Positions 5,036 to 63,756 of a stretch of DNA of 64,000 bases are shown here, in pieces. This DNA comes from a virus. The position numbers were made by a program, and so were the translations under genes. How positions within the stretch are numbered: position 1 is the stretch's first letter; each line of letters opens with the position of its first letter. Under the pieces are notes generated by a model. It was not told the origin of the DNA. It saw only the letters and a list, made by a program, of their open reading frames with translations, and did no database searches. The stretch is from the IMG/VR virus record IMGVR_UViG_3300038393_002936, one strand, 5' to 3'.

Positions 5036-5104
5036 ACTTTCCTGCCGGTTGAGCAAAGCGAAGTCCGGTGTATGTACCTGTGGGTATTCTGCACCGGAGT
5101 CACC

Positions 5105-5380
5105 ATGAATCAGCGAATCAACAACATCGAATTTTATCTCGAACACGAACAGGCCTTCGCGTACGTCTCGGCCAAAGAGCGTGAATCACTCCCACTGTCG
5201 TCATTCGGGTGGCCGAGCGAGCGCAAATTTCCAGTGACCAATCAGCGAATGCTTGACGCCGCGGTCAAGCTGATTGGCCGGGCTCCGGCATCCGAGCAGC
5301 CGAAAATCAAGGCTCGGCTGAAACGCATTGGGAAACGACTGGGCTTGAAGTTGCCCGAGTCGTGGGGTGGCTCAACCTGA
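5105..5380 (+). CDS. DUF6582-like small protein
   Basis: ERESLPLSSFGWPSERKFPV...AAVKLIGRA. Confidence 0.55.
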   Translation: MNQRINNIEFYLEHEQAFAYVSAKERESLPLSSFGWPSERKFPVTNQRMLDAAVKLIGRAPASEQPKIKARLKRIGKRLGLKLPESWGGST

Positions 5381-5844
5381 AGTTGTTGCTGAGGTATTAT
5401 GAGCAGTGCCGCTCAGGCCAAGAGCTTGAACTCGCACACGAGATTGTCGACGGAGATATCTTTTTAGTTAAAGCTGGACAGGCCCTGGTCTGGGACATTT
5501 TCGCAAACGGAGCTAGTATGTCGAGTAGCTTGAATATTAACCAACTCGTGGCGATTGATGAAATCATTGACGGAGACGTCTGGTTCCTACGAAGTCGCCA
5601 CCAGGAAGCGGTCCGAGCCCTGCTCGAAGAGGCCGACGACTGGGAAGACTGCTCGAACGAGCTGGAAGAACTCCAGCAACGAGTAGCTGAACTCGAACGG
5701 CAAAATGCAGACCTCCAGGACCGTCAAAAGAAACTAGAGGCCGAAAATGCCACACTCTCCCTTCGGGCGACCAAGGCCACGTCGCACATCGGTAAAATTG
5801 GGCAGGCCCTCGTCCGGGCCGGCAATAGGCTAACCGCAGGTTAG
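5362..5844 (+). CDS. coiled-coil hypothetical protein
   Basis: Heptad-rich C-terminus. Confidence 0.55.
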   Translation: MGWLNLKLLLRYYEQCRSGQELELAHEIVDGDIFLVKAGQALVWDIFANGASMSSSLNINQLVAIDEIIDGDVWFLRSRHQEAVRALLEEADDWEDCSNELEELQQRVAELERQNADLQDRQKKLEAENATLSLRATKATSHIGKIGQALVRAGNRLTAG

Positions 5845-5869
5845 CTGACTACACAAACGGGGAGTAATC

Positions 5870-7225: not shown

Positions 7226-7273
7226 TCCGGCAGGGAAGCACGCACATCTCCCTCTCCTGCCGGAGGTTTTTGT
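7226..7273 (+). terminator. terminator built from an inverted pair of the dispersed motif
   Basis: tccggcagggaag...ccctctcctgccgga followed by ggtttttgt. Confidence 0.65.
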
Positions 7274-9407: not shown

Positions 9408-9446
9408 TCCGGCAGGGAAGTGGACTATATCTGCTTCCCTGCCGGA
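9408..9446. terminator. perfect 13-bp inverted pair of the dispersed motif between convergent genes
   Basis: tccggcagggaag-N13-cttccctgccgga. Confidence 0.65.
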
Positions 9447-10815: not shown

Positions 10816-10910
10816 AGGCGTATTTCCGGCAGTTGACGAAGTCAACCGGACCACAGGTCCGGCAGTCGGCTCTGCCGACGGGACCGGAGGTCCGGCAGGA
10901 GAGGAGAGCA

Positions 10911-11807
10911 TTAGCGGCTCGCCAGGGCCGCCTGAACCACCCTCTTTGCACGATTCCGTTGTTCTTGAAGGTCAGGCACAAGTGCATCGTAATGCGGTTC
11001 CGTGATTGTAGGATAGGGCGACATCCCGTCCCCACCCCAACACCCGCTATCGGTGACTATGTCGGCTTCCCATTGTTCCCACGCCAATAACACTGCCTTG
11101 GCTTGCTCGAGAGCCACCAAGAAGGACTTTAGTTTCTCGACAGCTAAATCTCTCTGGGCGATGGCTTCGTCACGCTCCTTCTCTCCTTCCTGCCGGAGTT
11201 CTAGTGGCGTCTTCCCCTCTGGCCGCCTGACGATGGTCACCAGGAAGCCGGTCCCGTCCGGACAACCCATCACCATCTCCACGCAATTTTCGGCTTCACC
11301 GAGACTATCCCGGAAAGACTCGACCAACCACCGGGCAGCCCAATGCTTGAACTTGACACTCCCGTCAGCAATTTCCACGGGAATGTTTCTGAATGACTCT
11401 TCGATGCCTTCGTCGACCAGCTTCTTATAGTGGTCCCGCTGTCTGCGAAGCTCCCGAACTTCGTTCACAATATCTACCGGAGCCGTCTCTTCGTACTCGA
11501 GCCCCAAGGCTTCCAGAGCCGCCAGTGCCAAGTGCTCACAGTGCTGGGCACGGCCGACATTGTGGGCCGCCAGTTCTGCTTGGTAGGCGTCACGCTCGGC
11601 CCTCGCCGAGCCTCGCTCTTGCGTAACACGAGCAAGCTCTTCTCGGAGCTGGGTCACCTCGGCGACAGCTGAATCTCGACTTGCTCGCAACGAGGCCTTC
11701 CTGGCACCGACCGGAGCACCTATGCAAATCTCCCCGCTCACCACAGGGTTTTTAGCGAGTGGGCCGTCCGCTTCAGCGGACGGGGGAATCACGTGCTTTT
11801 TTGGCAT
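10911..11807 (-). CDS. hypothetical coiled-coil phage protein
   Basis: GAGGT RBS 9 nt upstream of ATG 11807. Confidence 0.7.
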   Translation of the reverse strand: MPKKHVIPPSAEADGPLAKNPVVSGEICIGAPVGARKASLRASRDSAVAEVTQLREELARVTQERGSARAERDAYQAELAAHNVGRAQHCEHLALAALEALGLEYEETAPVDIVNEVRELRRQRDHYKKLVDEGIEESFRNIPVEIADGSVKFKHWAARWLVESFRDSLGEAENCVEMVMGCPDGTGFLVTIVRRPEGKTPLELRQEGEKERDEAIAQRDLAVEKLKSFLVALEQAKAVLLAWEQWEADIVTDSGCWGGDGMSPYPTITEPHYDALVPDLQEQRNRAKRVVQAALASR

Positions 11808-12984: not shown

Positions 12985-13124
12985 CGACTCCTTCCGGCAG
13001 GGAAGGGATTATGGGGCGGCTCGCTCTTGCAGTAAACGACGATTTCGTCCTTGCCGAGTCCGACAGCCTGCATCCACGAAGTGCCATGAAGGTGGTCAGC
13101 CAGTAGTTTGCACTGTTCGTTCAC
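12921..13124 (-). CDS. small hypothetical protein whose 3' end is replaced by the tnpB insertion
   Basis: First 53 aa lie outside the element; reconstructed empty site gives ...SAIHPLR-stop at 11815. Confidence 0.6.
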   Translation of the reverse strand: MNEQCKLLADHLHGTSWMQAVGLGKDEIVVYCKSEPPHNPFPAGRSRAVQSAIRQPPPAQAGGLRSA

Positions 13125-14819: not shown

Positions 14820-15398
14820 ATGGACAACCACGCCGACTGGACGCCCGAAGCCCGTGCGTTATGGTCTACTTCCCTGCCGGAAATGGACCGGGACATCCTC
14901 GTGGGCACTGGCCATCGCCCACAAACCCTTGGTCTCCACCACGGCCCCCAAACGAACAGGTTACTGACGGAGTTCGCCCGCAAGCACCTCGAGCAGGTCC
15001 CCCGCCCTCAAGTCGTGTTGACCGGCGGTGCCCTCGGCTGGGATTTAGCCCTCTCGCACGCCGCAATCCTGTTTGGAATTCCCCTCTGGGTCGCAATTCC
15101 GCACGCGGGCTACACAGAACGGTGGCCGGAACCGGCTCGGAAACGATTCTGGGCAATTCTCGACCGAGCCAAGAAGGTCGTCCAGGTCTGCACCGGCGGG
15201 TACTCGCACGGGAAACCGCTTTCTCGCAACCGTTTTATGGTTGACATTGGAACCCGCGTTCTTGCTCTTTGCAATGGCACGGGCGAAGGTGGGACAGCTC
15301 AGTGCGTCGAATACGCTCGCCGAGTCGGACGACCAGTTTTGAACCTCTGGGAAGACTGGGAGATTTTCCGGCAGTCTGCTGATGCAACTGGGCGGTAG
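14820..15398 (+). CDS. YspA/SLOG (DUF1273-like) protein
   Basis: VGTGHRP, TGGALGWD, RNRFMVD, GGTAQCVEYA. Confidence 0.85.
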   Translation: MDNHADWTPEARALWSTSLPEMDRDILVGTGHRPQTLGLHHGPQTNRLLTEFARKHLEQVPRPQVVLTGGALGWDLALSHAAILFGIPLWVAIPHAGYTERWPEPARKRFWAILDRAKKVVQVCTGGYSHGKPLSRNRFMVDIGTRVLALCNGTGEGGTAQCVEYARRVGRPVLNLWEDWEIFRQSADATGR

Positions 15399-15411
15399 TT
15401 CCGGCAGGGAA

Positions 15412-15590
15412 GCTTAATAGGGGGGATTGGATGGACAACTACCAGGACTGGACCCCCGAAGCCCGCACACTCTGGTTTACTTCCCTGCCGGAAACAGACC
15501 ATCGCCCGCAAACTCTTGGGCTCCAGCACGGTCCCCAGACAAGCAGGCTCCTCGTCATCAAGTCGTAACGACTGGCCGGGTAGTATTCAG
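15412..15590 (+). pseudogene. degenerate tandem copy of the SLOG gene 5' end
   Basis: MDNYQDWTPEARTLWFTSLPE..HRPQTLGL vs MDNHADWTPEARALWSTSLPE..HRPQTLGL; deletions, stop at 15568. Confidence 0.8.
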
Positions 15591-15815
15591 CGTCAGCAGG
15601 TTAACAAAACGAAAGCTCGGATTTTCCGGCCGGCTATTTTTGCCCGTGGAGCAATTGTGATGTCTTGGACTCGATTCAGGACTACTCACGAAGGTTCGCT
15701 TCGCTCACCGGAATAGGTTCCGTTCTCGAGGACACATCTCCCTCTCCTGCCGGAAAGAATTTTCAACTCTTGGGAGCGCTCTTACGAGCCCCGCTCGTGT
15801 TGGCGGAGCCAACTG

Positions 15816-16787: not shown

Positions 16788-18422
16788 ATGCTGGTCGGCG
16801 ACATTCACATGTGGTCCCTGAATGGGACCACTCGTCGTTATACGGTCGTTACGCTTCCGTACGAATTGGCCTCGAAGCTGTTTAAGGCAAACGTCTACGA
16901 CGCCAAGACGGGCGAAGGGGAACAGCGGAAGGAAATCGCAACTCACGTCAAGGCCCTCAAGCGGGATATGCTAGCGGGGCAGTTCACCCCGACCCCGGTG
17001 TCTGCCGGATGTCGTCCGAAGCACCTAACTTCGGTTGTTTTTAACAAATACCAAGTCCATCTAGACCTCGACGAAGCCGACCCCCTTCCCTTGACCGACG
17101 GCCAGCAGCGATTTGGGGCTCTCCGGGCGATTGTGGAAGAGGCCAAGAAGGATGAAAACGCGGACCTGCTCAAGAAGGTCCTTGGCCTTCCCATCACCGT
17201 CACTATCCATTTTGACAGCAAGCCCGCGGTGGACTTTTTGAGGCTTCAGCTCGGCCGCCCGGTCGACACAGCCCACCTGTTGAGCCTCAAGGTCAAGGAA
17301 GGCCTGGTCCCGGACAAGGACTCGAGTCCGCTCAAGCTCGCGATGGCGGTCGCCAAGTTCATGCACGGCTCGTCGTCCAGTCCCTTTCACAAGATGGTCA
17401 AGTTCGACACGCGGGGGATGTCGAATCTGCCCGTGACGACTTTGTGTGCTCGTGGGGCCTCTGACCTGTCCGTCAGTCTCATGGGCCTGGTCAAGGTCGG
17501 GGCGAAGGCAGGCATCGAGACACCTGAAGAGCTTTCTGACTTCGTCACCCAGGTCGTCAAGACCCTGAATGAGCGGGCACCCTACCTGCTCGACACCGGA
17601 ATGCCCCTGTGCCCGCCACCGGACGGAACACGGGGTTCGGCCACGATGCTGATTGGGCTCGCGACGTGCCTCGCGTATCGCGTTTATGAAAAAGGCAACG
17701 GGAAGGTCGAAGAGGAGGACCTCGCGAAGCTGGTCGAGGTTGCCGAAGAAGTGTTCGAAACTCCCGTTTCGGGGAATTTTTCGAGCGCGTTCAAGCGGGA
17801 CCTGATGAAGGCGTTCGCCACCAGGTTCTTTTCCGACTTGGTCGGACCGCAGCACGAGGGGATTCCGGTCGAGCTGCTCAAGACCCTGAGCTGTTCGTCG
17901 TTCCGCGTGAGTCGTCTTCCGAAAGAGCGGACCGCGACTCGGGGTCGGGCGGCTACTTCTCGGGCCCCGCGAGCTTCGGCCAAGCTGGCTTCGCCAACGG
18001 TGGCTGAGCCGCCTAAGCCGTCCAAGGCAGCCGCGGTGATTCCTGCTCAGAAGCCTGCTCCGCAGCCCCCGGCGGAAGTGATGGTAGCCCCTCCTCCCCT
18101 GGTGAACAAAGTTCACGTCGGCGGAGCCGACCTGCCGGAAACGAGTCGGCCTCCGGAAGTGGCTTCGTCGCCAAAGATTACTGGCCCGGCAACCGCTGTT
18201 GAAAACAGCAAGGGGTCTGGGGTGGTCAAGCTTCAGTCGCTCGGTGAGTTCATCCCGGTAGTCGACTCCGACAACGGGAGCGAAGCTCCCATAGTCGCCT
18301 CTTGCGGCATGAACGCAGGTCCGGCAGGGAAGCAAGATATGGTGACTGGGGCGTCAGCCACAGTGACTATTCAAGAAGGTAGTAGTCAGTATCCTGATGT
18401 GGACCCGTGGGATGCTGCCTAG
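16788..18422 (+). CDS. DGQHR/DndB (ParB-like) domain protein with disordered Pro/Ala-rich tail
   Basis: LPLTDGQQRFGAL; about 160 aa low-complexity tail ending VDPWDAA. Confidence 0.7.
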   Translation: MLVGDIHMWSLNGTTRRYTVVTLPYELASKLFKANVYDAKTGEGEQRKEIATHVKALKRDMLAGQFTPTPVSAGCRPKHLTSVVFNKYQVHLDLDEADPLPLTDGQQRFGALRAIVEEAKKDENADLLKKVLGLPITVTIHFDSKPAVDFLRLQLGRPVDTAHLLSLKVKEGLVPDKDSSPLKLAMAVAKFMHGSSSSPFHKMVKFDTRGMSNLPVTTLCARGASDLSVSLMGLVKVGAKAGIETPEELSDFVTQVVKTLNERAPYLLDTGMPLCPPPDGTRGSATMLIGLATCLAYRVYEKGNGKVEEEDLAKLVEVAEEVFETPVSGNFSSAFKRDLMKAFATRFFSDLVGPQHEGIPVELLKTLSCSSFRVSRLPKERTATRGRAATSRAPRASAKLASPTVAEPPKPSKAAAVIPAQKPAPQPPAEVMVAPPPLVNKVHVGGADLPETSRPPEVASSPKITGPATAVENSKGSGVVKLQSLGEFIPVVDSDNGSEAPIVASCGMNAGPAGKQDMVTGASATVTIQEGSSQYPDVDPWDAA

Positions 18423-18452: not shown

Positions 18453-18740
18453 TTGGGACAATTCACAGGAGACATGATGAGCGATTGCCCTGTGGCGAGG
18501 TTGGCTCTGGCTTTCAACAGGCTAGTCGACGTAATGCTTGATGGTGGGCCCGAAAACGAAAAGAAGACTATTGCCGACGAAGGCATTGCTCTAATTCAGC
18601 AAGTTCAGGATAAATTTGGCGAAGAAGTTGTCAACACGGTTGTTCCTGATGGTGTCTTGGAGTCACTCAACCCTCGGGCTCGCTCGTTCGCTCTTTACGG
18701 AGCCTTCCTCGCTCTCCAAGAAGAGATGAGTCGTGCTTAA
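18453..18740 (+). CDS. hypothetical protein
   Basis: ORF in operon. Confidence 0.55.
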   Translation: MGQFTGDMMSDCPVARLALAFNRLVDVMLDGGPENEKKTIADEGIALIQQVQDKFGEEVVNTVVPDGVLESLNPRARSFALYGAFLALQEEMSRA

Positions 18741-20658: not shown

Positions 20659-20717
20659 GGTGCTCCTCATAATCTTCTCATCGCCCACCCTCGCTTCCCT
20701 GCCGGAAATTTGCCTCG

Positions 20718-42833: not shown

Positions 42834-42858
42834 ATAGGTACGCACCGTGACACCCTGA

Positions 42859-45957: not shown

Positions 45958-45958
45958 G

Positions 45959-51368: not shown

Positions 51369-51523
51369 CTTGGGGTGAGTTCAAGCAATACTTGGCCGAC
51401 CACGACGTGAAGGACTCGGACCCCATCTGGTATATAGACATTTCCCTGCCGGAACTCGAGAGTGTGACGAGGGAACCGACCGTAGTGGTTGACACCCAAC
51501 TGGGGGTTGGGGTACACAATTGA
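51365..51523 (+). CDS. small hypothetical protein
   Basis: MTWGEFKQYL...; overlaps both neighbours. Confidence 0.45.
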   Translation: MTWGEFKQYLADHDVKDSDPIWYIDISLPELESVTREPTVVVDTQLGVGVHN

Positions 51524-52551
51524 TTATCACATACCTGAGAAGTTCCTCGTATGGCACTTACTCCCTTTGCCCCTTCCAGTTCTATCTTAACTATACTTTA
51601 GGTATCCAACAGAAGCCGAATTTTAAGACTGAGAAGGGCTCAATTGTTCACAAGGCTCTCGAACTCCTGGCCCACCGCAAGGTGTGCGAACAGGGGGGAT
51701 TGGCTGGATTCCGAGAGGACGAGCTCGGCCGCCAGTTCTGGGCCGAAGATATCAGTGTCGAGGCTGCGGTCGAAGCAGCCTGGCGGCATTACACGCACTT
51801 CAACGAAAGTGGGCACAATTGGCCACGGGCAGATTACGACGACTGCTTGCGGTGGACCCGGGACGTGGTCGAGTTCAACGATGGGTGTTTTAATCCGCTA
51901 AACCGACACATTGTTTGTCCGGAGCAATATTTCGACCTAACGGTCGATGAGCCCTGGGCTCGGTACGAATACACCGACCCGTTCACGGGTAAAAAACTGG
52001 TGGGCCAACTGGCCGTCAAAGGTAGTATTGACCTGATTACGGAAGTGAACCAGGGTGTTCTCGAGTATCTAGACTGGAAGTCGGGCCGGCTCTGGGATTG
52101 GGCTAAGGACAAGCCAAAAGAGTACAAGGACCTATACGAGGACCCCCAACTTCTTCTTTATTTTTATGCCCTCAGCCGGCTTTACCCCCAATACCGGACC
52201 ACGCTGGTGACCATCTTTTTCGCCCAGGTTCGAATGCCGTTTACTATCCCATTTAACCGGGAAGTCGACGTGCCGCGGGCGCTCGACATGCTCCGAAAGC
52301 GGTTCGAGCTAATTCGCCACGACAACAAGCCGGCACGAATCATGGACGACCCGGCGAAGCGGTGGAAGTGTGGCAGTTTCTGCTACTTCGGTCGCAATAA
52401 ATATAAGGAGTCGAGCGACAGCATTTGCAATGTGGTCCACAAAGATGTCGTGAAGCTGGGTCTGGAACGGGCAATGGTAAAACACGGACGATTTAACGCT
52501 TATAAGAATTACGGCAGCGGCGGCGGCCAATCTAATCGGGAGACGGTATGA
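51520..52551 (+). CDS. PD-(D/E)XK Cas4/RecB-like exonuclease
   Basis: S.SS...CP; KGSIDL...DWKSG; QL..Y; C..CYF. Confidence 0.88.
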   Translation: MIITYLRSSSYGTYSLCPFQFYLNYTLGIQQKPNFKTEKGSIVHKALELLAHRKVCEQGGLAGFREDELGRQFWAEDISVEAAVEAAWRHYTHFNESGHNWPRADYDDCLRWTRDVVEFNDGCFNPLNRHIVCPEQYFDLTVDEPWARYEYTDPFTGKKLVGQLAVKGSIDLITEVNQGVLEYLDWKSGRLWDWAKDKPKEYKDLYEDPQLLLYFYALSRLYPQYRTTLVTIFFAQVRMPFTIPFNREVDVPRALDMLRKRFELIRHDNKPARIMDDPAKRWKCGSFCYFGRNKYKESSDSICNVVHKDVVKLGLERAMVKHGRFNAYKNYGSGGGQSNRETV

Positions 52552-52763: not shown

Positions 52764-53255
52764 ATGGACCTCGATACTTTTCAGGCCAAGGTTCGCGAGA
52801 CGGCGGCTTACCCCAGCGAAGCTTCGGTGGTTTACCCCGTGCTGGGCCTGGCGGGGGAAGCCGGTGAGGTCGCTGAAAAAGTCCGGGCTGCCCTCTTCCC
52901 TGCCGGACCTCCGACCGACTGGTCAGATATTTCCTGCCTGTTGAAGGAGCTCTACCGGTCATTAACCGAGGCTATGAACGCCGGCCGCCAGTGCGAACAC
53001 CTCAAGAAGCGACTGCGGGACCGCACGGACAAGCTCCCACGGGGGTTCCTGGACGCTTTGGCCGGACTGGTTTCCCAGATTTCCGAGGATGCCAAGGTCG
53101 GAATCTTGAAGGAAGTCGGCGATGTGTGCTGGTACGGGCCTTCGGTCATCCACGACGTAGGTTCGACTCTCGAGAAGGTCTGTCAGGAGTTACTCGACAA
53201 GCTGGCCTCGCGGAAGGCTCGCGGGGTGATTGGGGGGTCGGGCGACAACAGGTGA
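52764..53255 (+). CDS. MazG-like pyrophosphohydrolase with internal insertion
   Basis: LGLAGEAGEVAEKV; KEVGDVCWY. Confidence 0.8.
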   Translation: MDLDTFQAKVRETAAYPSEASVVYPVLGLAGEAGEVAEKVRAALFPAGPPTDWSDISCLLKELYRSLTEAMNAGRQCEHLKKRLRDRTDKLPRGFLDALAGLVSQISEDAKVGILKEVGDVCWYGPSVIHDVGSTLEKVCQELLDKLASRKARGVIGGSGDNR

Positions 53256-53296
53256 ACGAAGTTCACTTCCGGCAGGAGAGGGACATGGGACATCTC

Positions 53297-53323
53297 TTGA
53301 CCTTCCCTGCCGGACACTATAAT
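53297..53323 (+). promoter_or_regulatory. promoter whose spacer is occupied by the dispersed motif
   Basis: TTGACC-ttccctgccggacac-TATAAT (15-nt spacer). Confidence 0.5.
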
Positions 53324-54051: not shown

Positions 54052-56091
54052 ATGACATATGTCCCACTGCATTGTCATACAATGCTCTCCTTGCTCGACG
54101 GACTTTCCAAGCCCCACCAGGTGGCCGCTCGAACCCGGCATATTGGTGCTCCGGCTTGTGCAATCACTGACCACGGGAATGTTTCAGGGGTTCCGGCCTT
54201 TCAAAAGGCAATGTCGGCTGCTTGCAAGCACTGCGGAAACCAGCCCGACCGACACGCAGACGGCGGCAAGGGCCCGTGCGTACTCAAGGGAGTCGAATGC
54301 CCCGGCTACGAGAAGGCCCCGCTCAAAGCCATCCTGGGCGAAGAGTTCTATTTGTGCAAACAGAGCGCAACCCAGCGGGACAACGAGAACCGCTCGCTTT
54401 CGCACCTGTGTGTCCTGGCCAAGAACAAGGACGGCTGGCGGAATCTGGTCCAGGCGTCGACCGCGTCCAACCGGCCCGAGCATTATTATTACAAGCCGCG
54501 TCTGAGCCTCACCGAACTGGCGGCGTTCGCGAAGGGGAACTGGGTCACCTTCAGTGGCCACCCCGGCTCGGACTTGGCCAACATCTGCTTTGCAGACCCC
54601 AAGGCCGCGTATGGGGCCCGGACTTACGAGGAGGCTCGCGGTTTCGTCAAGGACCAGCGGTCGCTCAAGAAGGACGTGACGGACTTGGCCGGGCTCTATC
54701 GGGAACTGTTCGGCCCCGACAACTTTTTCCTCGAAATTCAGCTGATTGACCACCAGAACTGCCCGGCCGCCGGCATCGTCGCGAGCATCCTCCGGGACAT
54801 CAGCCGCCGAACCGGCATCCCCTGTGTGGCCACTCCGGACGCTCACTATCCCACCAAGGAAGATGCCAAGGACCAGCGAGTCCTTTTGTGCTCGGCTATC
54901 GACACGACGCTGGCCGAGGCCGAACGCAAGCTGGCGGCCGGCGAAGATATCGGTCTGGGCGGCTTCTTCCGCTCGAACCGCTATCACATTCCGTCTTACG
55001 AGGAGATGGCTGAAGCAGGTCAGACAGCCGAGGAGTTGGCAAACACGCTCCGAATCGCCGAGATGTGCGAGCCGTACGACATCTTGAAGCCGCCTCAACT
55101 TCCGCGGTTCGAATGTCCGGCAGGGAAGTCACCAGACCAGTACCTGCGGGAGATTTGCCGGGACGGCTGGAACCGGAAGGTCGAACCGCTGCTCGCGAGG
55201 GGACAGGGGAGTCGGGCAGAATACTCGGCCCGCATCCGGGAAGAACTAGCGACGTTGACCGAGGTCGGGCTTGCCCCCTATTTCCTGATTGTCCGCGATT
55301 ACAACAAGTACGCCCAGGAGGTGCTCGGGTGTCCGAAAGACCCGGGGCGGGGGTCGGCCGCCGGCTGCCTCGTCAGCTACCTGGCCGACATTACAGATAC
55401 GGACCCTGTACTATATGAACTATCGTTTGTTAGATTTTTTAATAGAGGGAGGCACTCCCCCGAACACGGCCGGTACGCCATGCCCGACATCGACAGCGAC
55501 TTTCCCTCGGGCAAACGGGACCAAATCATCGAGTATGTGCGGACCAAGTACGGGGACGAACACGTGGCCCAGATGGCGACGTTCGCCGAGCTCCAGGGCC
55601 GCGAGGCCATCACGGCGGTCTTGCGGGCTCACTCGTGGGGCTCGTTCGAGGACCGCAAAAAAGTCACGGCGGCCATCCCGGACAAGGCGGCCATCTCGGA
55701 CGAACTCCAGGACATGATGGAAGAAGAAGGCGAGGCCTCGAGCATTCGCTGGACCCTCGAGAATAAACCCGACGCCCTCCGCGAATATTGCACGCTGAAC
55801 GAAGACGGGACCCTGGAGGGGCCACTCGCCGCCCACTTCGAACAGGCGATGCGGCTGGAGGGTAACAAGAAGAGCCAGGGGCGGCACCCGTCCGGAATCG
55901 TCATCTCGCCGACCCCGCTCCGGGATGAGGTCCCGATGGTCTACGACAAGAGCACCAAGCGGATGGTGACAGGGTTCGACATGCACGGGGTCGAGGCCGC
56001 CGGAATTCTCAAGTTCGACATTCTGGCAACACGCGCGTCCGATAAAATTTTGGACGCCTGCGTCGGGGCCCGAACCGGGAGGGTTTCTTGA
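54052..56091 (+). CDS. dnaE: DNA polymerase III alpha, N-terminal half (PHP plus palm/thumb)
   Basis: HCHT..S.LDG; ITDHG; GRGSAAG; PDIDSDF; RHPSG; KFDIL. Confidence 0.93.
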   Translation: MTYVPLHCHTMLSLLDGLSKPHQVAARTRHIGAPACAITDHGNVSGVPAFQKAMSAACKHCGNQPDRHADGGKGPCVLKGVECPGYEKAPLKAILGEEFYLCKQSATQRDNENRSLSHLCVLAKNKDGWRNLVQASTASNRPEHYYYKPRLSLTELAAFAKGNWVTFSGHPGSDLANICFADPKAAYGARTYEEARGFVKDQRSLKKDVTDLAGLYRELFGPDNFFLEIQLIDHQNCPAAGIVASILRDISRRTGIPCVATPDAHYPTKEDAKDQRVLLCSAIDTTLAEAERKLAAGEDIGLGGFFRSNRYHIPSYEEMAEAGQTAEELANTLRIAEMCEPYDILKPPQLPRFECPAGKSPDQYLREICRDGWNRKVEPLLARGQGSRAEYSARIREELATLTEVGLAPYFLIVRDYNKYAQEVLGCPKDPGRGSAAGCLVSYLADITDTDPVLYELSFVRFFNRGRHSPEHGRYAMPDIDSDFPSGKRDQIIEYVRTKYGDEHVAQMATFAELQGREAITAVLRAHSWGSFEDRKKVTAAIPDKAAISDELQDMMEEEGEASSIRWTLENKPDALREYCTLNEDGTLEGPLAAHFEQAMRLEGNKKSQGRHPSGIVISPTPLRDEVPMVYDKSTKRMVTGFDMHGVEAAGILKFDILATRASDKILDACVGARTGRVS

Positions 56092-57644: not shown

Positions 57645-59251
57645 TGTACCGGTTTGAGTGTGGCTGCGAATTCCCGGTGACCGGGCCGCCACCTCGGCCC
57701 GGGGCCCCTCCGCTCATCGATATTGACCCCGACCACCTGCCCGACTGCAAGGCGGCATGGGCCATCTACGCAACCGGTCGAACCAAGGGTCTCTTTCAGG
57801 TCGAGGGCGGGACCGGTCGCAAGTGGAGCCCCATTTTGAAGCCCGAGAGTATCGAGCACTTGGGAGCTCTATTAGCGGTGATAAGGCCGGGTTGCCTTGA
57901 GGTTCAAATGGAAGATGGAATGACAGTTACCGAAAAATACTGTCGCCGGAAGAACGGCTTGGAGGCCCCGACCCCGTTTCATCCCGCTTTGGAAGAGGTG
58001 CTAAGGAAAACGTATGGCCTCATGCTCTACCAGGAGCAGATGACGAAAATTGCCGAAGTCCTGGCCGGGTTTGACTTGGTCGAGCAGGACATGCTGCGAA
58101 AAGCGGCCGGCAAGAAGGATATGGCCGCGATGGACAAGGTCGGGCTCCTGTTTGTCGAAAAAGCGGTCGCCAAGCGACTGGTCGGCAAGCAAGAAGCCGA
58201 AACCATATTCTCTAACATTCGTAAGTCTGGACGATACTTATTTAATAAGAGCCACTCTATTTCTTATGCAAAGAAATCTTATCAGACGGCCTACCTGAAG
58301 ACCCACATCTTGGGCTGGTTCTTTGCCTCGTGGCTGAAGAACGCCCAGGACGCGGCCGACTCCCAAGAAGAAGTTCTCGAACTGGTCGAAAACGCCAGGC
58401 AGTACGAGCTCGAAGTGCTGGTCCCGGACGTGCGAACCCTGTCCACCACAATTTCTTCGGACGGACTCTCGGTCCGGTTCGGACTGGCGGACGTGAAGGG
58501 GGTCGGGCCGTCACAGCCCCAAAAGCTATCCGAGGCGTTCCCGGACGGCTTCGGCGGCTGGACCTGGCCCGATTTTCTGTACAGGGCGGCCGACACGGTG
58601 GCCTCAACCGCAATGCGCGCTTGGGTCGGGGCCGGGGCGTTCGACTGGACCGGCGTGACCCGAACCCGGATGGGCAAGGAATTCGATGCCTGGTTGGAGT
58701 TGACGGACATCGAGAAAGAATGGGTGCGGAGCAAAGCTCCGGGCACGACTCTCGTGGAAGCTCTGAAAAGCCTTGGTCGAACTCGCAAAGAAGGCGGCGG
58801 GTGCTCGAACCACAAGCGGGCCGACCTGGTCCGGTCCCTGGCCCTGATGCTCGAGAACCAGGCCTCGTCCGATGCGGACCACCCGAACTTGCTCTGCGCG
58901 ATGGAAGAGTCGTACCTGGGAGTCGCCCTGACCTGTTCCCGGGTCGACGGGTGCGACGTGTCGTCGGCCAACGTGACGTGCGGGGAGTTTCTGGCGGGTA
59001 AGGCCGGGCACCTGATGCTGGCGTGCGAGGTAAAAGATGTCCGGATAATCCGGACGAAGAAAGACGGGCGAGAGATGGCGTTCGTGACGGTGGCGGACCG
59101 TACCGCTTCCCTGCCGGATGTCGTCGTATTCCCCGACACATGGGCGAAGTTCGGGCGACTGTTCCGGGCTAAAAACACGGTTCTGCTGGAGGGGGAGCGG
59201 GACTACAAAAAGGGTGTTTCGTTCATTGTGAACCGCGCTATTCAACTTTGA
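57641..59251 (+). CDS. dnaE: DNA polymerase III alpha, C-terminal half (fingers, HhH, OB)
   Basis: GLFQVEG; IRPG; YQEQ; FNKSHS; FGL.DVKGVG; EMAFVT..D. Confidence 0.92.
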   Translation: MMYRFECGCEFPVTGPPPRPGAPPLIDIDPDHLPDCKAAWAIYATGRTKGLFQVEGGTGRKWSPILKPESIEHLGALLAVIRPGCLEVQMEDGMTVTEKYCRRKNGLEAPTPFHPALEEVLRKTYGLMLYQEQMTKIAEVLAGFDLVEQDMLRKAAGKKDMAAMDKVGLLFVEKAVAKRLVGKQEAETIFSNIRKSGRYLFNKSHSISYAKKSYQTAYLKTHILGWFFASWLKNAQDAADSQEEVLELVENARQYELEVLVPDVRTLSTTISSDGLSVRFGLADVKGVGPSQPQKLSEAFPDGFGGWTWPDFLYRAADTVASTAMRAWVGAGAFDWTGVTRTRMGKEFDAWLELTDIEKEWVRSKAPGTTLVEALKSLGRTRKEGGGCSNHKRADLVRSLALMLENQASSDADHPNLLCAMEESYLGVALTCSRVDGCDVSSANVTCGEFLAGKAGHLMLACEVKDVRIIRTKKDGREMAFVTVADRTASLPDVVVFPDTWAKFGRLFRAKNTVLLEGERDYKKGVSFIVNRAIQL

Positions 59252-60226: not shown

Positions 60227-60587
60227 CATGAACACCATTAATAAGGAACGATTGCTGACGTTGGCCGACCGGCTCGACACGGTTCCGCCGCATGATTTCA
60301 GCCTCGGTAAGTGGGTCGAACGGCCCGCGGATTCCAAGTGTGGGTTCGCCGGGTGTGCCGTGGGCTGGGCCGGCACCATCGACGAGTTCAACCGGGACGG
60401 ATTCAAGTTCGGCCCGGGTGGGTTTCATGTGGTGTACGGCCAGTCACAGAATTGGCGGGCCGTAACCGAATTTTTCGGACTCGAATTCCACCAGGCCGAG
60501 TATTTATTCGATGTGGGGCGGTATTTGAACGGTCGCCACACAACTCCTGGTGAGGTGGCGTCGAGGATTCGTGCGGCCGTGGCATAA
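60227..60587 (+). CDS. hypothetical phage protein
   Basis: AAGGAG RBS; CGFAGCAVGW. Confidence 0.6.
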
Positions 60588-60841
60588 CCACAAGGAGGTT
60601 CTGGTGACGGATAAGAACGATGCGGTCGAACGATTTCGGTCGACTCCCAATCACAAGGTAAAGTTACCGGACGCCGTACATGTTTTGGCGGCGGTGAATC
60701 CTCCGGTCGTCCCGGCCGAAACGCAGCCGGTGGTGAAGGCAGTCGAAAAGCCAAAGGGTGAGACTATCGTCACGAAAGTGACCGAGGGGCCAAAAACCGA
60801 GACCAGCAAGGTAGAAAAGTGACGGGACGGCGAGGGTGGTC

Positions 60842-62605
60842 ATGTGGCCTTCCTCGTCGTCTTTTTTGGAGCCCACCTCTTTTCCTGCCGGAATTTCGAA
60901 CGTGCGTAAGCCGAGAGTCTTGGTGGCCGGTGAAAGTTCGTTCTTAAATTCTGGTTTTGCGACCTACGGTTACGAACTTCTCAAGCGATTGCACGCGACC
61001 GACCTGTTCGACCTGACCGAGTTCGGGTCGTTCGGCCAGTTCGACGATGTGCGGGCTTTAGACCTGCCCTGGCGATTCATCTCCGCACTTCCCGACCCCG
61101 ACAAGCCGGACGAAGTCGCCCGGTACGAATCGAACCCCCTCTACAAGTTCGGGGCATGGAAACTTGAAGAAGCCTTGCTCAATGTTAAGCCCGATATAGT
61201 CTTATCATGGCGCGATTTTTGGATGGATGAATGTATTTTTAGGTCTCCATTTCGCAAGTTTTATCATTATAGTCATATGCCGACTGTTGACGCGGCTCCG
61301 CTCAACCTACAGTGGGTAGCGTCTTATTTAGAAGCCGACGCGGTTTTTGCTTACACGGACTGGGGTCTGGAGACCCTCCGGCAGGAAGGTGGGGGCCGCA
61401 TCAAGACGAAGTGTTCCGCCCCCCCGGGTGCCGACACGGAGGTCTTCCGCCCGCGGGGCGACCGCGAGAGCCTCAAACGGCTCATCGGACTTCCGGAAGG
61501 AGCTTTGGTCGTCGGGACTGTCATGCGGAATATGAAAAGGAAATTGTACCCGGACCTGTGCGAGGCATTCGCGATGTTCCTCCGCGAGGCCCCCGAGGAC
61601 ATCCGGAACCGAACTTATCTCTACCTGCACACCTGCTACCCGGACCTGGGCGGCTGGGACATCCCCCGGCTCATCAAGGACAACGGCATTGGCCACCGGG
61701 TCCTCGTCACCTACATTTGCCGGTCGTGCGGCGAGGCTTTCCCCTGCCCGTTCTCGGACGCCTTGACCCACTGTAGAAGTTGCGGCAAGTCGACCGCGGT
61801 CATGCCGGATTCGGGAGCCGGGGTCTCGCGGGAGACGCTGTCGAAAATTTATAATATATTCGACTGTTATGTCCAATATTCAAGCAATGAAGGCATGGGT
61901 ATGCCGGCTGTCGAGGCGGCGGCATGCGAAGTCCCCGTAATGGAAGTCGACTACAGCGCGATGTCGGATGTTGTCCGCAAACTCCACGGCGTACCCATCA
62001 AGGTCCAGCGGTTCTACCGAGAGGCCGAGACCTACCGGTTGTTCGCAATGCCTGACCAGGACGACTTCGTTTCGAAGTTGTCTCACCTCCTTTCCCTACC
62101 GGAAGTCATCCGTCGTCGCATGGGCTGGCAGGCCCGAAAGGGAGTGCTCGAGCACTACACGTACGACCGGACCGCCAAAATTTGGGCCGACCACCTGCTG
62201 AGCGTGCCGCTCCGCGACCATTCGGTCACCTGGGACAGTCCGCCCCGCTATCACGAACCGAACACACGAATCCCCGATGGCCTCTCGAACGAGGAGTGGG
62301 TTCGCTGGTGTTTCGTGAACGTACTCGGGCGGCCAGATTTGGTCGATTCGTACGCCGCCGTGCGGATGACACGAGACCTGAACTGGCGGACGACAACCGG
62401 TGGGATGGGTGGCTTTATCTATAACGACGCCTCGGCTTTAGGGCTCGAAGTGGAGACCCGCCGGACGGCCTTCGACCGACAAGCGGCCCTGGACCAGATG
62501 TTGAACACCGTCGGCGAGTGGAATTACTGGGAGCGTCGTCGGTGTATGTTCCGACAGACCGACTCTGTCGGCGTGAGCTCCGCTCACTCGGAGGTCCGGA
62601 TTTGA
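60842..62605 (+). CDS. glycosyltransferase family 4 with zinc-ribbon insertion
   Basis: SGFATY; VMRNMKRK; EGMGMPAVEA; CRSCG x2. Confidence 0.88.
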   Translation: MWPSSSSFLEPTSFPAGISNVRKPRVLVAGESSFLNSGFATYGYELLKRLHATDLFDLTEFGSFGQFDDVRALDLPWRFISALPDPDKPDEVARYESNPLYKFGAWKLEEALLNVKPDIVLSWRDFWMDECIFRSPFRKFYHYSHMPTVDAAPLNLQWVASYLEADAVFAYTDWGLETLRQEGGGRIKTKCSAPPGADTEVFRPRGDRESLKRLIGLPEGALVVGTVMRNMKRKLYPDLCEAFAMFLREAPEDIRNRTYLYLHTCYPDLGGWDIPRLIKDNGIGHRVLVTYICRSCGEAFPCPFSDALTHCRSCGKSTAVMPDSGAGVSRETLSKIYNIFDCYVQYSSNEGMGMPAVEAAACEVPVMEVDYSAMSDVVRKLHGVPIKVQRFYREAETYRLFAMPDQDDFVSKLSHLLSLPEVIRRRMGWQARKGVLEHYTYDRTAKIWADHLLSVPLRDHSVTWDSPPRYHEPNTRIPDGLSNEEWVRWCFVNVLGRPDLVDSYAAVRMTRDLNWRTTTGGMGGFIYNDASALGLEVETRRTAFDRQAALDQMLNTVGEWNYWERRRCMFRQTDSVGVSSAHSEVRI

Positions 62606-63756
62606 AAATCCTCGTCACTGGTGTGTTCACCGAACCGACCGGCTTCGGCCACGCGGTCCGCGAAACCATCCTAAGTCTCGACAGTGCCGGGGCCGATGTC
62701 GCCTGTCGCCCCATCCAGTTCACACCCAATCTTCCGGTCACCCACCCCCGCCTCCAGGAACTGTGCCGCAAGAGTTTCCCGGGCGGCTCGGATGTGCTCC
62801 TTCAGTACATGCCGCCGTACTGCCACCAGTACCACGCCAAGGGCGGCCTGAACGTCGGCAGTTTTTTCGCCGAAACCGAGCCAGTGCCTGGCTCGTGGGC
62901 TTCGCGAGCTAATCTGCTCGACCTGCAAGTGGTGCCGTGCCGGGACCAGGCGGATGCCCTGCGAGCGTCCCCGCACTACCGGAAGCCCGTCGAGGTCGTC
63001 GGCTTGCCGTCCGACGTCAGTAAGTTTGACCGCCAGTATCCGGTGCCAAAGGCCATCGAGGGATTCAAGCGGGGCCGGTTCCTCTTTTACACGGTCGGCG
63101 AGTACGTCAAGCGGAAAGGGTTCTCGCTGCTCGTCCGGGCCTTCGTTCAGGAATTTCGCCTTGGCGAACCGGTCGGTCTCGTCCTTAAGGTTTCCAAGGA
63201 GCGGATGATGGCCGCCGAGCTTGTCAAGGGCGTGACGGGTGACGTCGAGGCCATCAAAGCCGGGTGCGGGCTGACCCGGACACCCCCCGTTCTGGTCTTG
63301 GGCGAGCGACTGAGCGAGGACGAATTGTGCGGCCTGCACCAGGCCTGCGACGTGTTCGTGCAGCCCTCCCACGCCGAAAGCTGGTCTTATCCCTCCTTCG
63401 ACGCGATGGGTTTCGGCAAGACCCCCATTGTGACGGACTGGGGCGGGTTCCGCGAGTACGTCGACACCACCACAGGCTACCCCCTCTCCTGCCGGAAAGA
63501 ACCGGTGTTCGGCGAAGGTCGGGTCCACGCCGAGTTGTTCACCGGTCGGGCCACCTGGGCCGCACCGGACCTGTTGGACATCCAGACGAAAATGCGCGAG
63601 GCGTACACGGATGCCGTGGGTCGGGCTGCCAAGGCAGCCAGTGGCCGGCTCCGGGTCCGCGAGTTCGACCACGGGCACATTGGTGCCCGGCTGTTGAAGG
63701 TGTTCGAAGATGCGCAAAAGTGTCGAGCTGAAAGACTGGGTTCGGGAACGCGATAA
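62602..63756 (+). CDS. glycosyltransferase family 4
   Basis: TGFGHA; VGEYVKRKG; AESWSYP.FDAMGFG. Confidence 0.88.
   Translation: MKILVTGVFTEPTGFGHAVRETILSLDSAGADVACRPIQFTPNLPVTHPRLQELCRKSFPGGSDVLLQYMPPYCHQYHAKGGLNVGSFFAETEPVPGSWASRANLLDLQVVPCRDQADALRASPHYRKPVEVVGLPSDVSKFDRQYPVPKAIEGFKRGRFLFYTVGEYVKRKGFSLLVRAFVQEFRLGEPVGLVLKVSKERMMAAELVKGVTGDVEAIKAGCGLTRTPPVLVLGERLSEDELCGLHQACDVFVQPSHAESWSYPSFDAMGFGKTPIVTDWGGFREYVDTTTGYPLSCRKEPVFGEGRVHAELFTGRATWAAPDLLDIQTKMREAYTDAVGRAAKAASGRLRVREFDHGHIGARLLKVFEDAQKCRAERLGSGTR

Follow-up and report, generated by a model that had tools for sequence, protein, structure and literature searches.

Known Chi sites are G/purine-rich, asymmetric words of 5 to 8 nt that are read by the host RecBCD or AddAB. 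Known ParB-family sites are palindromes, and known DnaG-type primases require three bases only. The DnaG of gammaproteobacteria starts on 5'-d(CTG) from the middle base, and its primers begin with pppAG (PMC2978363); for the T7 primase site, two reports describe the flanking sequence context as affecting primase binding or activity (PMC12839067, PMC6136900). Chi-enriched phages have been described, and in lambdoid phages Chi richness accompanies the lack of an own Rec module (PMC12315714). Dialects exist among the uptake sequences (DUS) of Neisseriaceae (PMC3630211). Here, we describe an uncultured soil phage with a genome of ∼166 kb in which a 13-nt asymmetric word, TCCGGCAGGGAAG (consensus tTCCGGCAGG[GA][AG]AG), recurs at a density of ∼0.65 copies/kb on both strands, essential genes included; this phage and its closest relatives each maintain their own version of the word, at roughly one copy per kb. 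The window analyzed is a 64,000-nt stretch from IMG/VR record IMGVR_UViG_3300038393_002936.

Results

An earlier note on this DNA listed 17 exact copies of TCCGGCAGGGAAG and 8 of the variant TCCGGCAGGAGAGGG, and we recovered every one at the same coordinate and strand; neither exact form occurred in 100 dinucleotide-preserving shuffles. Its near-matches proved to be true one-mismatch copies, with starts within 1 to 3 nt of those given. The 9-nt core TCCGGCAGG is the top overrepresented 9-mer in the window, with 39 occurrences (17 on the plus and 22 on the minus strand) versus ∼1.5 expected under an order-3 Markov model, and a position weight matrix scan found 45 sites versus none in shuffled sequence. 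In other samples, contigs of this phage continue 6.2 kb beyond the window and hold 4 further copies. The copies identified are as follows.

4896..4908, plus strand: word copy TCCGGCAGGAAAA in CDS 4667-5035
5037..5049, minus strand: near copy ACCGGCAGGAAAG at a gene junction
7226..7264, both strands: intergenic convergent pair, exact 13-mer on plus and AGAG form on minus; hairpin fold, then T-run
9408..9446, both strands: convergent pair whose 13-nt arms match perfectly, lying between convergent genes
10825..10903, plus strand: direct triplet at 33-nt intervals (two copies of TCCGGCAGT, one of TCCGGCAGGAGAG), with a hairpin (6-bp stem, 3-nt loop) after each copy; the minus strand encodes a repeated PAG/TAG peptide
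11185..11197, minus strand: word copy in CDS 10911-11807 (minus strand)
12993..13005, plus strand: exact copy in noncoding DNA after tnpB
14869..14881, minus strand: exact copy within the 5' part of SLOG/YpsA-like gene 14820-15398, paired convergently with a near copy at 14789
15400..15492, both strands: convergent pair (15400 plus, 15480 minus) bracketing the start of truncated paralog 15433-15567
15742..15754, minus strand: intergenic AGAG-form copy, in a 28-nt family with 7238, 29917, and 46371
18127..18139, minus strand: core copy beside two small hairpins, where gene 16788-18422 encodes its disordered C-terminal tail
18320..18332, plus strand: exact copy in the same tail, reading GPAGKQ
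19656..19668, plus strand: near copy ACCGGCAGGGAAA at the 3' end of the GT4 gene
20694..20706, minus strand: intergenic exact copy, 12 nt before ATG 20718
23595..23607, plus strand: exact copy 26-41 nt upstream of the sigma-like gene
25190..25507, both strands: convergent pair 309 nt apart inside CDS 25026-25838
28195..28237, both strands: convergent pair (hairpin) within the linker that precedes the SH3 domain in CDS 26703-28406
29931..29943, minus strand: copy in the gap before nrdJ
30016..30028, plus strand: start-associated near copy CCCGGCAGGGTAA, 16 nt before the nrdJ ATG
32974..32986, minus strand: copy in the nrdJ 3' part
33072..33084, plus strand: copy in the nrdJ 3' part
34270..34282, minus strand: near copy TCCAGCAGGGAAA
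34473..34485, plus strand: start-associated near copy, 18 nt before ATG 34491, its GGAG serving as Shine-Dalgarno (SD) sequence
37062..37074, minus strand: copy at the 3' end of CDS 36151-37164
37473..37485, minus strand: AGAG-form copy
38386..38398, plus strand: exact copy 59 nt before the DegT gene start
40546..40558, plus strand: near copy in a CDS
42752..42875, both strands: convergent pair 115 nt apart, spanning gene junction 42822/42892
45975..46397, both strands: convergent pair bracketing a 126-aa gene after recA; plus copy 17 nt before ATG 45992
51441..51453, minus strand: copy in a small CDS
52895..52907, minus strand: exact copy in the 163-aa gene 52764-53255
53268..53314, both strands: convergent pair (hairpin) after the 163-aa gene; hairpin GTGAACgaaGTTCAC precedes
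55116..55128, plus strand: exact copy in the DnaE N half; PAGK versus PGGI/PGGM in orthologs, gap-free
59106..59118, minus strand: exact copy in the DnaE C half; SLPD versus HLTD in an ortholog, gap-free
60880..60892, minus strand: copy at a GT gene start
61377..61389, plus strand: copy in the same GT gene
62091..62103, minus strand: near copy in the same GT gene
63484..63496, minus strand: AGAG-form copy in the same GT gene

The 163-aa gene, called MazG in the earlier note, is orthologous by position to a faint MazG match in the relative L183.

The word is maintained by selection on the DNA itself, as the earlier note had proposed. Synonymous-codon shuffling within genes (300 shuffles) gave a mean of 3.3 and a maximum of 8 core copies in CDS, versus the 25 observed, so codon usage does not explain the counts. 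All six reading frames are used, as had been claimed, and the 13-mer occupies 9 of 12 places where the protein sequence would permit its encoding. Copies in conserved genes are gap-free base substitutions relative to orthologs (DnaE, DnaB, DegT, primase, and UDG), some of which alter an amino acid. Recently acquired mobile genes are free of the word; its reported absence from tnpB and endonucleases holds for tnpB, the HNH genes, and the genes at 43.6-44.9 kb.

We examined six relatives, with DnaB 49 to 67% identical or found through the DndB-like protein described below. All six carry an enriched word built on GCAG and a purine run, e.g., CCAGCAGGGAAGG, GAGCAGGGGAGG, and GCAGACGAGAA, with weaker enrichment in L182 and in the 30%-GC L238. 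Each phage with the DndB-like gene, as well as L182, has its own enriched dialect, in which an invariant GCAG, which could simply reflect shared descent, is followed by purines; related dialects occur in phages of 49 to 63% GC. Enrichment was not found in the AT-rich, more distant relatives (∼45 relatives, 4 whole viral records). Relatives keep the density of copies but not their positions: the 7 conserved genes compared, with 32 copies, gave 1 positional coincidence. In L183 and L182, a dialect copy likewise lies in the MazG/NUDIX-to-dnaE interval that holds the 53268..53314 pair, and the DnaB and DnaE of L239 contain gap-free convergent pairs.

The earlier note took strand balance to mean a nonpolar signal. 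The balance holds, but it does not make orientation irrelevant, because close neighbors are mostly convergent pairs, 30 to 500 nt apart. Neighbors <300 nt apart comprise 20 convergent, 5 divergent, and 4 same-strand cases, an orientation runs test gave a Stouffer z of 2.2, and the relatives alone retain orientation structure at <500 nt (16 versus 5). Nearly half of the copies are antisense, while the phage genes, and likewise the GC skew, run almost all in one direction. Spacing on each strand is no more regular than random, with gaps (read from the positions) of up to ∼5 to 7 kb. Across the clade, 11 of 77 sense copies (∼14%) lie 12 to 22 nt before a start versus 1.2 expected, and ATG or GTG stands at +16 to +19 in 17 of 39 copies versus ∼4.5 expected by our own estimate.

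Given its presence inside essential genes, the word is probably read on DNA by the phage's own machinery. The window encodes the following candidate readers and partners.

16788..18422, plus strand: ParB/DndB-like protein with a ParB/Srx-fold N-domain, candidate reader
18733..19842, plus strand: GT4 glycosyltransferase, close downstream of the DndB-like gene
23636..24169, plus strand: small sigma-70-family protein with weak r2 and r4 matches, candidate reader
44851..45957, plus strand: RecA, candidate partner in a Chi-like process
47986..49443, plus strand: DnaB-like helicase, primase partner
49430..50587, plus strand: DnaG-type primase (Toprim), candidate reader
51520..52551, plus strand: PD-(D/E)XK exonuclease, candidate partner in a Chi-like process

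The ParB/DndB-like protein is conserved in the motif-bearing phages found. GT4 also lies close downstream of its gene in the L303, L304, and L385 loci, with 1 to 4 small genes between them (none in L385). The sigma-like protein shares 36% identity with a homolog in L304 that is r4 positive. All six phages whose replication modules were compared have primase and DnaB, and no word copy occurs in RecA in any of the 5 genomes compared. A methyltransferase had been proposed at 1-837; we found no methyltransferase domain in 94-837.

Discussion

We infer that a phage-encoded factor reads the word as a "self" signal that is sensitive to orientation and for which frequency matters and place does not. 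A small mobile element (MITE, REP-like, or IS605-derived) whose scars or ends spread through the genome is extremely improbable. Convergent pairs do resemble terminal inverted repeats, a tnpB gene is present, and 25 to 28 nt are common to a few intergenic copies, but the copies in conserved genes are substitutions rather than insertions, which refutes this reading. In addition, nothing in the flanks is informative beyond ∼14 nt, two 93-nt "elements" are a duplicated gene start, all frames are used, and relatives carry the same kind of word in different dialects, not one same element. It is also very improbable that the word is a host-derived signal (an uptake sequence, host Chi, or similar) gained by host matching. 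The density and spread recall DUS, which likewise have dialects. However, the asymmetric word is unenriched in candidate hosts, with ≤15 copies per genome in 401 Planctomycetota (a multicopy insertion sequence accounts for them in the single genome with 15) and ≤5 in 81 Latescibacterota, and in 151 Planctomycetota genomes the dialects of the relatives stay at control level. No enriched contig emerged when metagenome contigs were scanned for the paired form, the dialects span phages of differing GC content, and this phage has its own Rec genes, unlike Chi-rich lambdoid phages. The uptake-sequence or HIP1-type analogy of the earlier note is thus unsupported.

Among phage-encoded functions, a gene-expression signal seems improbable. 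The sense word would act in translation initiation (SD plus enhancer) or as a one-block promoter for a small sigma factor, with antisense copies pairing with sense copies in mRNA to mask starts or driving antisense transcription. The sharp peak before real start codons and the ATG/GTG excess suit this proposal, as do the purine half of the word, which resembles the GGAG-type SD sequences used by phage genes, the conservation of the sigma-like gene (with a copy just upstream in two genomes), and the leaning of sense copies in genes to 3' ends and of antisense copies to 5' ends. Yet ∼85% of copies are not near a start, almost half are antisense, a real gene begins at only 3 of the copies with ATG/GTG, the ATG is missing from copies in conserved genes, and a second promoter block is not conserved. 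Rather unlikely, too, is a site where the clade-specific ParB/DndB-like NTPase would load or be targeted, to coat phage DNA or mark it chemically together with the nearby GT4. Its N-domain has an invariant GxGEQR motif; the family is rare (25 matches among 5.8 billion proteins, L239 and L183 included), and its most distant homolog (33% identity) is in a phage with its own word, GCAGACGAGAA. A family match was absent from four word-less AT-rich relatives in a search run without a positive control, the DndB-like and GT4 genes are near each other in four genomes, and an MT-A70 DNA methyltransferase domain is fused to one of the homologs. Phylogeny confounds the co-occurrence of protein and word, as the subclade has many genes of its own; moreover, the word is asymmetric whereas known ParB-family sites are palindromic, no HTH domain was recognized in the helical part, and a plain double-strand binder would be indifferent to orientation, whereas the close pairs seen here converge at variable spacing. 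We are similarly doubtful of a phage-specific Chi-like signal, at which RecA, the PD-(D/E)XK exonuclease, and unseen partners would resect ends to the word in its active orientation and then load RecA; phage DNA would be spared and recombine while word-less host DNA was degraded. The word shares its purine richness and asymmetry with known Chi sites, its positions turn over at kept density, sampled hosts are unenriched, Chi-enriched phages are known, and RecA and the nuclease were called in every replication module compared (L238 RecA is intein-split). The two orientations are interspersed beyond chance, which suits ends entering a permuted genome from either side. Set against this, known Chi sites are shorter and have a host reader, and we know of no precedent for a phage-encoded one; a RecBCD/AddAB-type helicase-nuclease was not seen in the phage DNA examined, lambdoid Chi richness goes with a missing Rec module whereas this phage has RecA, and no convergent-over-divergent preference is predicted in close pairs.

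Our preferred reader, held tentatively as a possibility, is the DnaG/DnaB replisome, with the word as a favored start site for the DnaG-type primase traveling with DnaB. The complementary strand, 5'-CTTCCCTGCCGGA-3', contains the 5'-CTG-3' trinucleotide of gammaproteobacterial DnaG initiation; starting from its middle base, the primer would be an all-purine pppAGGGAAG, expected to pair stably with the pyrimidine template. The variable 5' part of the word may be a flank that the zinc-binding domain particular to each phage recognizes. In a convergent pair, priming on one strand would head towards priming on the other, as with the first primers at a bidirectional start, and sense copies in short gene junctions could double as SD sequences. 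Several points weigh against priming, including the three-base requirement of known DnaG-type primases; to our knowledge, no genome is enriched for an extended primase site. Okazaki priming would not favor the long gaps and irregular spacing, and the lack of strand bias despite one-way genes and GC skew means that forks would have to run in both directions. Neither the hairpin-type pairs 30 to 38 nt apart nor the ATG/GTG excess is predicted by priming, shared descent of the dialects could account for their common GCAG, and the word's distribution is matched by the ParB/DndB-like protein no less well than by the primase.

Among known systems, a ParB/DndB-like reader would be likened to a Noc/ParB/KorB loader or a DpdB-type helper, here with ∼100 asymmetric sites per genome. 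The word itself is like DUS/USS in its density, its use of both strands, its coding and intergenic placement, and its inverted pairs.

A short word at one copy per kilobase

The window carries a short word with the 9-nt core TCCGGCAGG at 39 to 45 copies per 64 kb (∼1 per kb); the copies use both strands and all frames and lie in noncoding as well as coding DNA. The earlier note had reported 17 exact copies of TCCGGCAGGGAAG and 8 of a variant, TCCGGCAGGAGAGGG; all of them are where it placed them and on the strands it gave, and neither form occurred in 100 dinucleotide-preserving shuffles of the window. The core is present 39 times (17 plus, 22 minus) against 1.5 copies expected under an order-3 Markov model of the window, bearing out the proposed k-mer over-representation, and the most over-represented 9-mers of the window are the core and its overlapping subwords. 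The consensus, tTCCGGCAGG[GA][AG]AG, is asymmetric, and the flanks of the copies hold no information beyond ∼14 nt. A PWM built from the copies found 45 sites in the window and none in shuffled sequence.

The genes of the window lie nearly all on the plus strand and form a phage replication and nucleotide-metabolism module with RNA ligase, ThyX-like thymidylate synthase, intein-bearing NrdJ, RecA, DnaB, DnaG-type primase, PD-(D/E)XK exonuclease, SSB, and several GT4 glycosyltransferases. DnaE is split, and its two halves flank UDG and a proofreading exonuclease. The same phage was recovered from several soil and rhizosphere metagenomes in contigs of up to 165,690 bp and at assembler (k-mer) contig depths of up to ∼150x, and all fetched contigs of it were at least 99.98% identical to the window. 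At 21376-21508, 22092-23058, 24195-24307, and 25483-25485, co-occurring strains differ by SNP clusters, by 898 other letters replacing the thyX-like segment, by a 111-to-61-nt swap, and by a 3-nt insertion right beside a word copy.

Selection on the DNA

Copies occur in all six reading frames, as the earlier note had claimed. Synonymous shuffling of each gene left on average 3.3 copies of the core in coding sequences (maximum, 8 in 300 shuffles) against the 25 observed, and of the 12 sites at which the encoded protein allows the full 13-mer, 9 carry it. Shuffles, Markov expectation, and this synonymous-codon null led us to reject chance and codon usage as causes of the excess. In ortholog alignments, the copies within conserved proteins are gap-free and were made by substitutions, some of them nonsynonymous. 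The copy in DnaE reads PAGK in the window phage against PGGI or PGGM in orthologs, that in DnaE-C reads SLPD against HLTD in the ortholog, and DnaB of one relative has LAGK where the window phage has LAAK. The word is selected on the DNA itself, and its upkeep at ∼1 per kb costs amino acid changes in essential genes.

A MITE/REP-like reading fails because the copies are gap-free substitutions in conserved proteins; these alignments, and the lack of shared flank sequence beyond ∼14 nt, exclude scars of mobile elements. The absence of the word from mobile genes was confirmed, with no copies in tnpB, the HNH genes, or the genes at 43.6 to 44.9 kb. Apparent “joints” at word copies in contig alignments had one side of only 21 to 38 nt and were treated as alignment artifacts. 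Two 93-nt “inverted-repeat elements” at 14788 and 15399, considered as a MITE, are actually a duplicated gene end:

14788-14889 and 15399-15500: 5′ end of a SLOG/YpsA-like gene with its upstream word copy, duplicated 611 nt downstream (truncated 44-codon paralog, 82% identity)

Position of copies relative to genes

Eighteen of the 45 PWM sites lie in noncoding DNA, which makes up 7.3% of the window, and 27 lie in coding sequences. Only 15 of 41 gaps of at least 25 nt bear a site, so the word is not a general gene-boundary signal. Coding copies favor gene 3′ ends and disordered tails (11 of 21 in the last 18% of the gene, by our own count); within genes, sense copies lean to 3′ ends and antisense copies to 5′ ends. 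RecA (44851-45957) and its orthologs carry no copy in five genomes, where ∼5 would be expected at average density. One set of copies is periodic:

10531-10911, minus strand: three word copies with a 33-nt period, encoding a repeated (S/T)(P/T)AG(P/N) peptide at the N terminus of a possible 126-amino-acid protein

An ATG or GTG stands 16 to 19 nt past the word start in 17 of 39 copies, against ∼4.5 expected by our estimate; only three real genes, nrdJ and those at 34491 and 45992, open with such a codon. Shine-Dalgarno sequences of the phage genes are generally of the GGAG type. Among 144 copies across phages, the G of GCAG lies 12 to 22 nt before an annotated start in 11 of the 77 sense copies (1.2 expected) and in only 3 of the 67 antisense copies. 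We read the start-associated subclass as dual use, in which a sense copy is tolerated in short junctions where its purine half can be a ribosome-binding site. Two other repeated elements of the window were recorded. One is a block, CTTAATAGGGGGGATTGCATG, comprising a ribosome-binding site and start codon. The other is a class of perfect hairpins (6-bp stem, 3-nt loop), numbering 64 in the whole window versus 20 expected; many follow the pattern GTYGRC-nnn-GYCRAC, with GAA or AAA as the loop, and ∼11 are no more than 45 nt away from a word copy.

6999-7031, 14799-14840, 15409-15451, and 33917-33959: CTTAATAGGGGGGATTGCATG block before four genes
7272, 10832, 10865, 15799, 18102, 18117, 22043, 33286, 53252, and 60074: examples of 6-bp-stem hairpins

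Dialects among related phages

We compared the DNA around DnaB of five relatives (49 to 67% identical) and two further loci of the same genomes. TCCGGCAGG is absent from the fetched DNA of all five of these DnaB-selected relatives, and each is enriched for its own word built on GCAG plus purines, on both strands and mostly inside genes. A sixth phage was found via its DndB-like homolog, the most distant one. GCAG is common to all dialects, which occur also in phages spanning 49 to 63% GC.

Dialects of the word in relative phages
L239 and its further locus L303: CCAGCAGGGAAGG; 20 and 22 copies in 21 kb with one mismatch allowed
L183 and its further locus L304: C[GT]AGCAGGGGAGG
L237: AGCAGGGA / GCAGGAGAG
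L182: TGAGCAGGGAA; weaker enrichment
L238: CAGCAGAGAA; weak enrichment, 30% GC
L385 (the sixth phage): GCAGACGAGAA; 100 to 175 times expectation

No such word was seen in ∼45 more distant, AT-rich IMG/VR relatives (DnaB 45 to 49% identical), and four whole viral records of 92 to 223 kb gave only 2 to 7 generic matches. Across seven conserved genes, word positions coincided once among 32 copies of different genomes, indicating that density is maintained while positions turn over. Such turnover at constant density is typical of a genome-wide signal, unlike locus-specific operators.

Orientation and pairing

The earlier note had called the strands roughly balanced and dismissed a polar signal. 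The balance stands (17 plus, 22 minus), but the irrelevance of orientation does not, since the arrangement is nonrandom. Orientation alternates more often than by chance (31 runs versus 21.8 expected in the window; Stouffer z of 2.2 over eight loci). Neighbors less than 300 nt apart form 20 convergent pairs (opposite strands, purine ends facing each other), 5 divergent pairs, and 4 same-strand pairs, against a chance ratio of 1:1:2, and in the relatives alone neighbors less than 500 nt apart are convergent in 16 cases and divergent in 5. Four pairs in the window, 30 to 38 nt apart, fold as strong hairpins; in L239, L303, and L237, convergent pairs are 130 to 300 nt apart, some of them within DnaB and DnaE and gap-free. 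The word is probably read with a sense of direction, and the pair geometry points to a directional reader.

Many pairs are 130 to 300 nt apart and within genes, so these are not terminator hairpins. A role for the pairs as terminators was likewise unsupported by a test for intrinsic terminators, in which a T-run followed the hairpin only at the 7251-7266 pair and terminator-like sites were not above chance (23 versus 22 expected in 19 kb). Neither the regular spacing expected from Okazaki priming, by our reading of the window positions, nor a strand bias tied to replication direction or genome ends was seen (17 plus and 22 minus copies under one gene direction and one GC-skew sign).

Searches of hosts and databases

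The word occurs 0 to 4 times in most of 401 Planctomycetota genomes; the maximum, 15 copies in a lone outlier, is due to a multicopy IS. In 81 Latescibacterota genomes it occurs 0 to 5 times per genome, and the dialects of the relatives are at control level in 151 Planctomycetota genomes. The closest relatives of tnpB (52 to 57% identity) are from Latescibacterota and Isosphaeraceae. In one sample, the assembler depth of tnpB (11670-13003) is about twice that of its flanks (60 to 74 versus 30) and contigs break at its edges, which points to further copies of the element, or to relatives of it, in this sample.

INPHARED contains neither the phage nor a near match or close cultured relative, and in IMG/VR neither a near relative nor a carrier of the word turned up, the relatives there being distant ones with DnaB 45 to 49% identical; IMG/VR scans with 14- and 15-mers returned single chance matches only. 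A metagenome scan for the paired form gave 63 unrelated single matches and no enriched contig, and one for the 544-amino-acid DndB-like protein gave no match. At least 11 metagenome contigs of 41 to 63% GC (L243, L248, L251, L258, L268, L270, L282, L284, L286, L296, and L298) share an unrelated hairpin, TCCGGCAGGGAAGGCSGATGTCCTGCCGGA, which may be conserved in a different organism.

The word is not a MITE, not a codon artifact, and not a host word in the genomes searched. Because the sampled candidate host genomes are not enriched for the word and dialects occur in phages of 49 to 63% GC, a phage-encoded reader coevolving with the word is more likely than a host factor.

Candidate readers

We tentatively propose, at somewhat less than even confidence, that in a subclade of large soil phages the DNA is tagged as the phage's own by a word that is specific to the lineage, read according to orientation, and often at work as a convergent pair, and that a phage-encoded machine reads it to tell phage from host DNA. 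The machine could be the replisome primase, phage Chi-type recombination, or a ParB/DndB-like NTPase directing a glycosyltransferase. If true, viruses would have here an equivalent of the uptake and Chi “self” signals of bacteria, with a reader that coevolves with its word.

The function that we favor most, though at well below even confidence, is priming or initiation by the replisome. The DnaG-type primase (49430-50587), with DnaB (47986-49443), is a candidate reader: the strand complementary to the word (5′-CTTCCCTGCCGGA-3′) contains a 5′-CTG-3′ opposite the invariant GCAG, the word would template an all-purine primer, AGGGAAG, and priming on both strands would run inward between the members of a convergent pair. 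Gammaproteobacterial DnaG initiates on d(CTG) from the middle base to give pppAG primers (PMC2978363), and two T7 reports describe a primase affected by the sequence context flanking its 5′-GGGTC-3′ site (PMC12839067, PMC6136900). As a sequence match, every dialect keeps GCAG and a complement with CTG. Against priming stand the shortness of known primase sites (only 3 to 5 nt), the irregular spacing, and the lack of a strand bias. An unlikely role for the word is that of a phage Chi-like signal for RecA and the PD-(D/E)XK nuclease. Only these two were seen in the window, with no RecBCD/AddAB-type helicase-nuclease, and Chi-rich lambdoid phages are those without a Rec module of their own (PMC12315714).

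We consider it similarly improbable that the ParB/DndB-like protein (16788-18422, plus strand) is a loader on the word, although several observations favor this. The 544-amino-acid protein has a ParB/Srx-fold N-terminal domain of the DndB family, spanning residues 1 to 385, as well as an invariant GxGEQR motif and a disordered tail. Its family is rare (25 matches in 5.8 billion proteins), with members in L239 and L183 (both confirmed on fetched DNA), putatively in L237, and also in L385; the protein was not detected in four relatives without the word. The gene lies close upstream of a GT4 glycosyltransferase gene (18733-19842, plus strand). This co-occurrence of protein and word is, however, confounded by phylogeny, and the word is asymmetric whereas ParB-family sites are palindromic. 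One DndB-like homolog is fused to an MT-A70 methyltransferase.

ParB/DndB-like NTPase and GT4 gene pairs (adjacent in L385, with one to four small genes between them elsewhere)
Window: 16788-19842
L303: 10001-13386
L304: 10001-14231
L385: 10001-12322

A gene-expression signal seems more improbable still. Its candidate reader would be a small sigma-70-family protein, of which the clade has one or two; in two genomes its gene is closely preceded by a word copy. A promoter is hard to reconcile with the antisense copies and with the missing second promoter block. A two-block promoter was rejected, with no second conserved block near word copies. The window sigma-70-family protein is very divergent, with subthreshold r2 and r4 matches. 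Pfam searches of ∼30 uncharacterized proteins revealed no classical regulator, and Rfam and tRNA scans returned nothing. The probability left by these four readings falls to something not yet considered.

Small sigma-70-family proteins
Window: 23636-24169
L304: 17383-17976
L303: 18949-19461 and 969-1649

Comparison with known systems

ParB-family sites (parS, Noc NBS, and KorB OB) are 13- to 16-bp palindromes, present in tens per replicon and many of them in genes, with a ParB/Srx-fold NTPase as reader. The word is likewise dispersed, with many copies in genes, and a clade-specific ParB/Srx-fold protein is conserved in the word-bearing phages found, but the word is asymmetric and much denser. 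With 5′-CTG-3′ sites of DnaG it shares the CTG in the complement of GCAG and a predicted primer starting pppAG; primase sites are 3 to 5 nt long, and we know of none that are enriched or form dialects.

Stoperators of Cluster A mycobacteriophages (the L5 gp71 sites) are 13-bp asymmetric sites in tens of copies, read by a phage protein; as part of the repressor circuit of temperate phages, they occupy short gaps between genes and all face the same way with respect to transcription. The word is also a 13-bp asymmetric site scattered over a phage genome, but it occurs in both orientations, with 27 of 45 sites in coding sequences and 15 of 41 gaps occupied, and no repressor or integrase was seen in the window. 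Stoperators are mentioned in a report on Cluster K mycobacteriophages (PMC3203893). The SAS of Cluster K is a 13-bp asymmetric repeat with an SD-like GGAG, absent from the host and with subcluster variants; it has no known function, and some of its copies are accompanied by inverted repeats whose spacers vary (PMC3203893). There are 11 to 19 SAS per genome, virtually all in one orientation and a few nucleotides before start codons, and the genes concerned are mostly preceded by larger intergenic gaps (PMC3203893). A subset of word copies sits at a like place before start codons, whereas ∼85% are elsewhere and most copies are in genes; 67 of 144 are antisense, and 11 of the 77 sense copies are start associated.

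Chi is an asymmetric, G-rich word whose density in phage genomes can be raised by selection and which is read on DNA in an orientation-dependent manner (PMC12315714); the word of the window phage shares the form and the raised density, and probably the manner of reading. P1, LLS, and other lambdoid phages use the 8-nt host Chi, lack their own Rec module, and have sites clustered towards the genome ends (PMC12315714). Unlike in these Chi-enriched phages, the word is 13 nt long, clade specific, and equal on both strands, and the window phage has RecA.

The DUS/HIP1 likeness proposed in the earlier note holds for density, for occurrence on both strands, and for use of any frame, but not for sharing with the sampled candidate hosts or for symmetry, HIP1-type words being palindromes and this word asymmetric. 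As with the DUS of Neisseriaceae and the USS of Pasteurellaceae, the word is 9 to 13 nt long, occurs at ∼1 per kb on both strands and in genes in any frame, is enriched between genes, and forms inverted pairs. DUS/USS have a cognate uptake receptor, ComP or a type IV pilus, as their reader. A virion has no uptake step; in contrast to DUS/USS carriers, this one is a virus without uptake machinery, and no competence genes were seen in the window. Neisseriaceae DUS form lineage-specific dialects around a fixed core (PMC3630211), and so does the word of the window phage and its relatives.

In its statistics, the word comes closest to DUS/USS and Chi, and one subclass of its copies comes closest to SAS, but it fails defining features of each. 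Genome-wide “self” words, among them Chi, DUS/USS, KOPS, and parS-like sites, hold a central place in bacterial DNA handling. The phage cases known to us are host Chi sites taken over by phages, or regulatory sites that lie near genes and number a few dozen; here, a whole subclade keeps its own evolving word at ∼1 per kb. Its reader, once found, would be a new DNA-recognition module and would explain a constraint on phage gene evolution, and the word would serve as an easily scored sequence marker by which metagenomic contigs could be placed in the clade and its sublineages.
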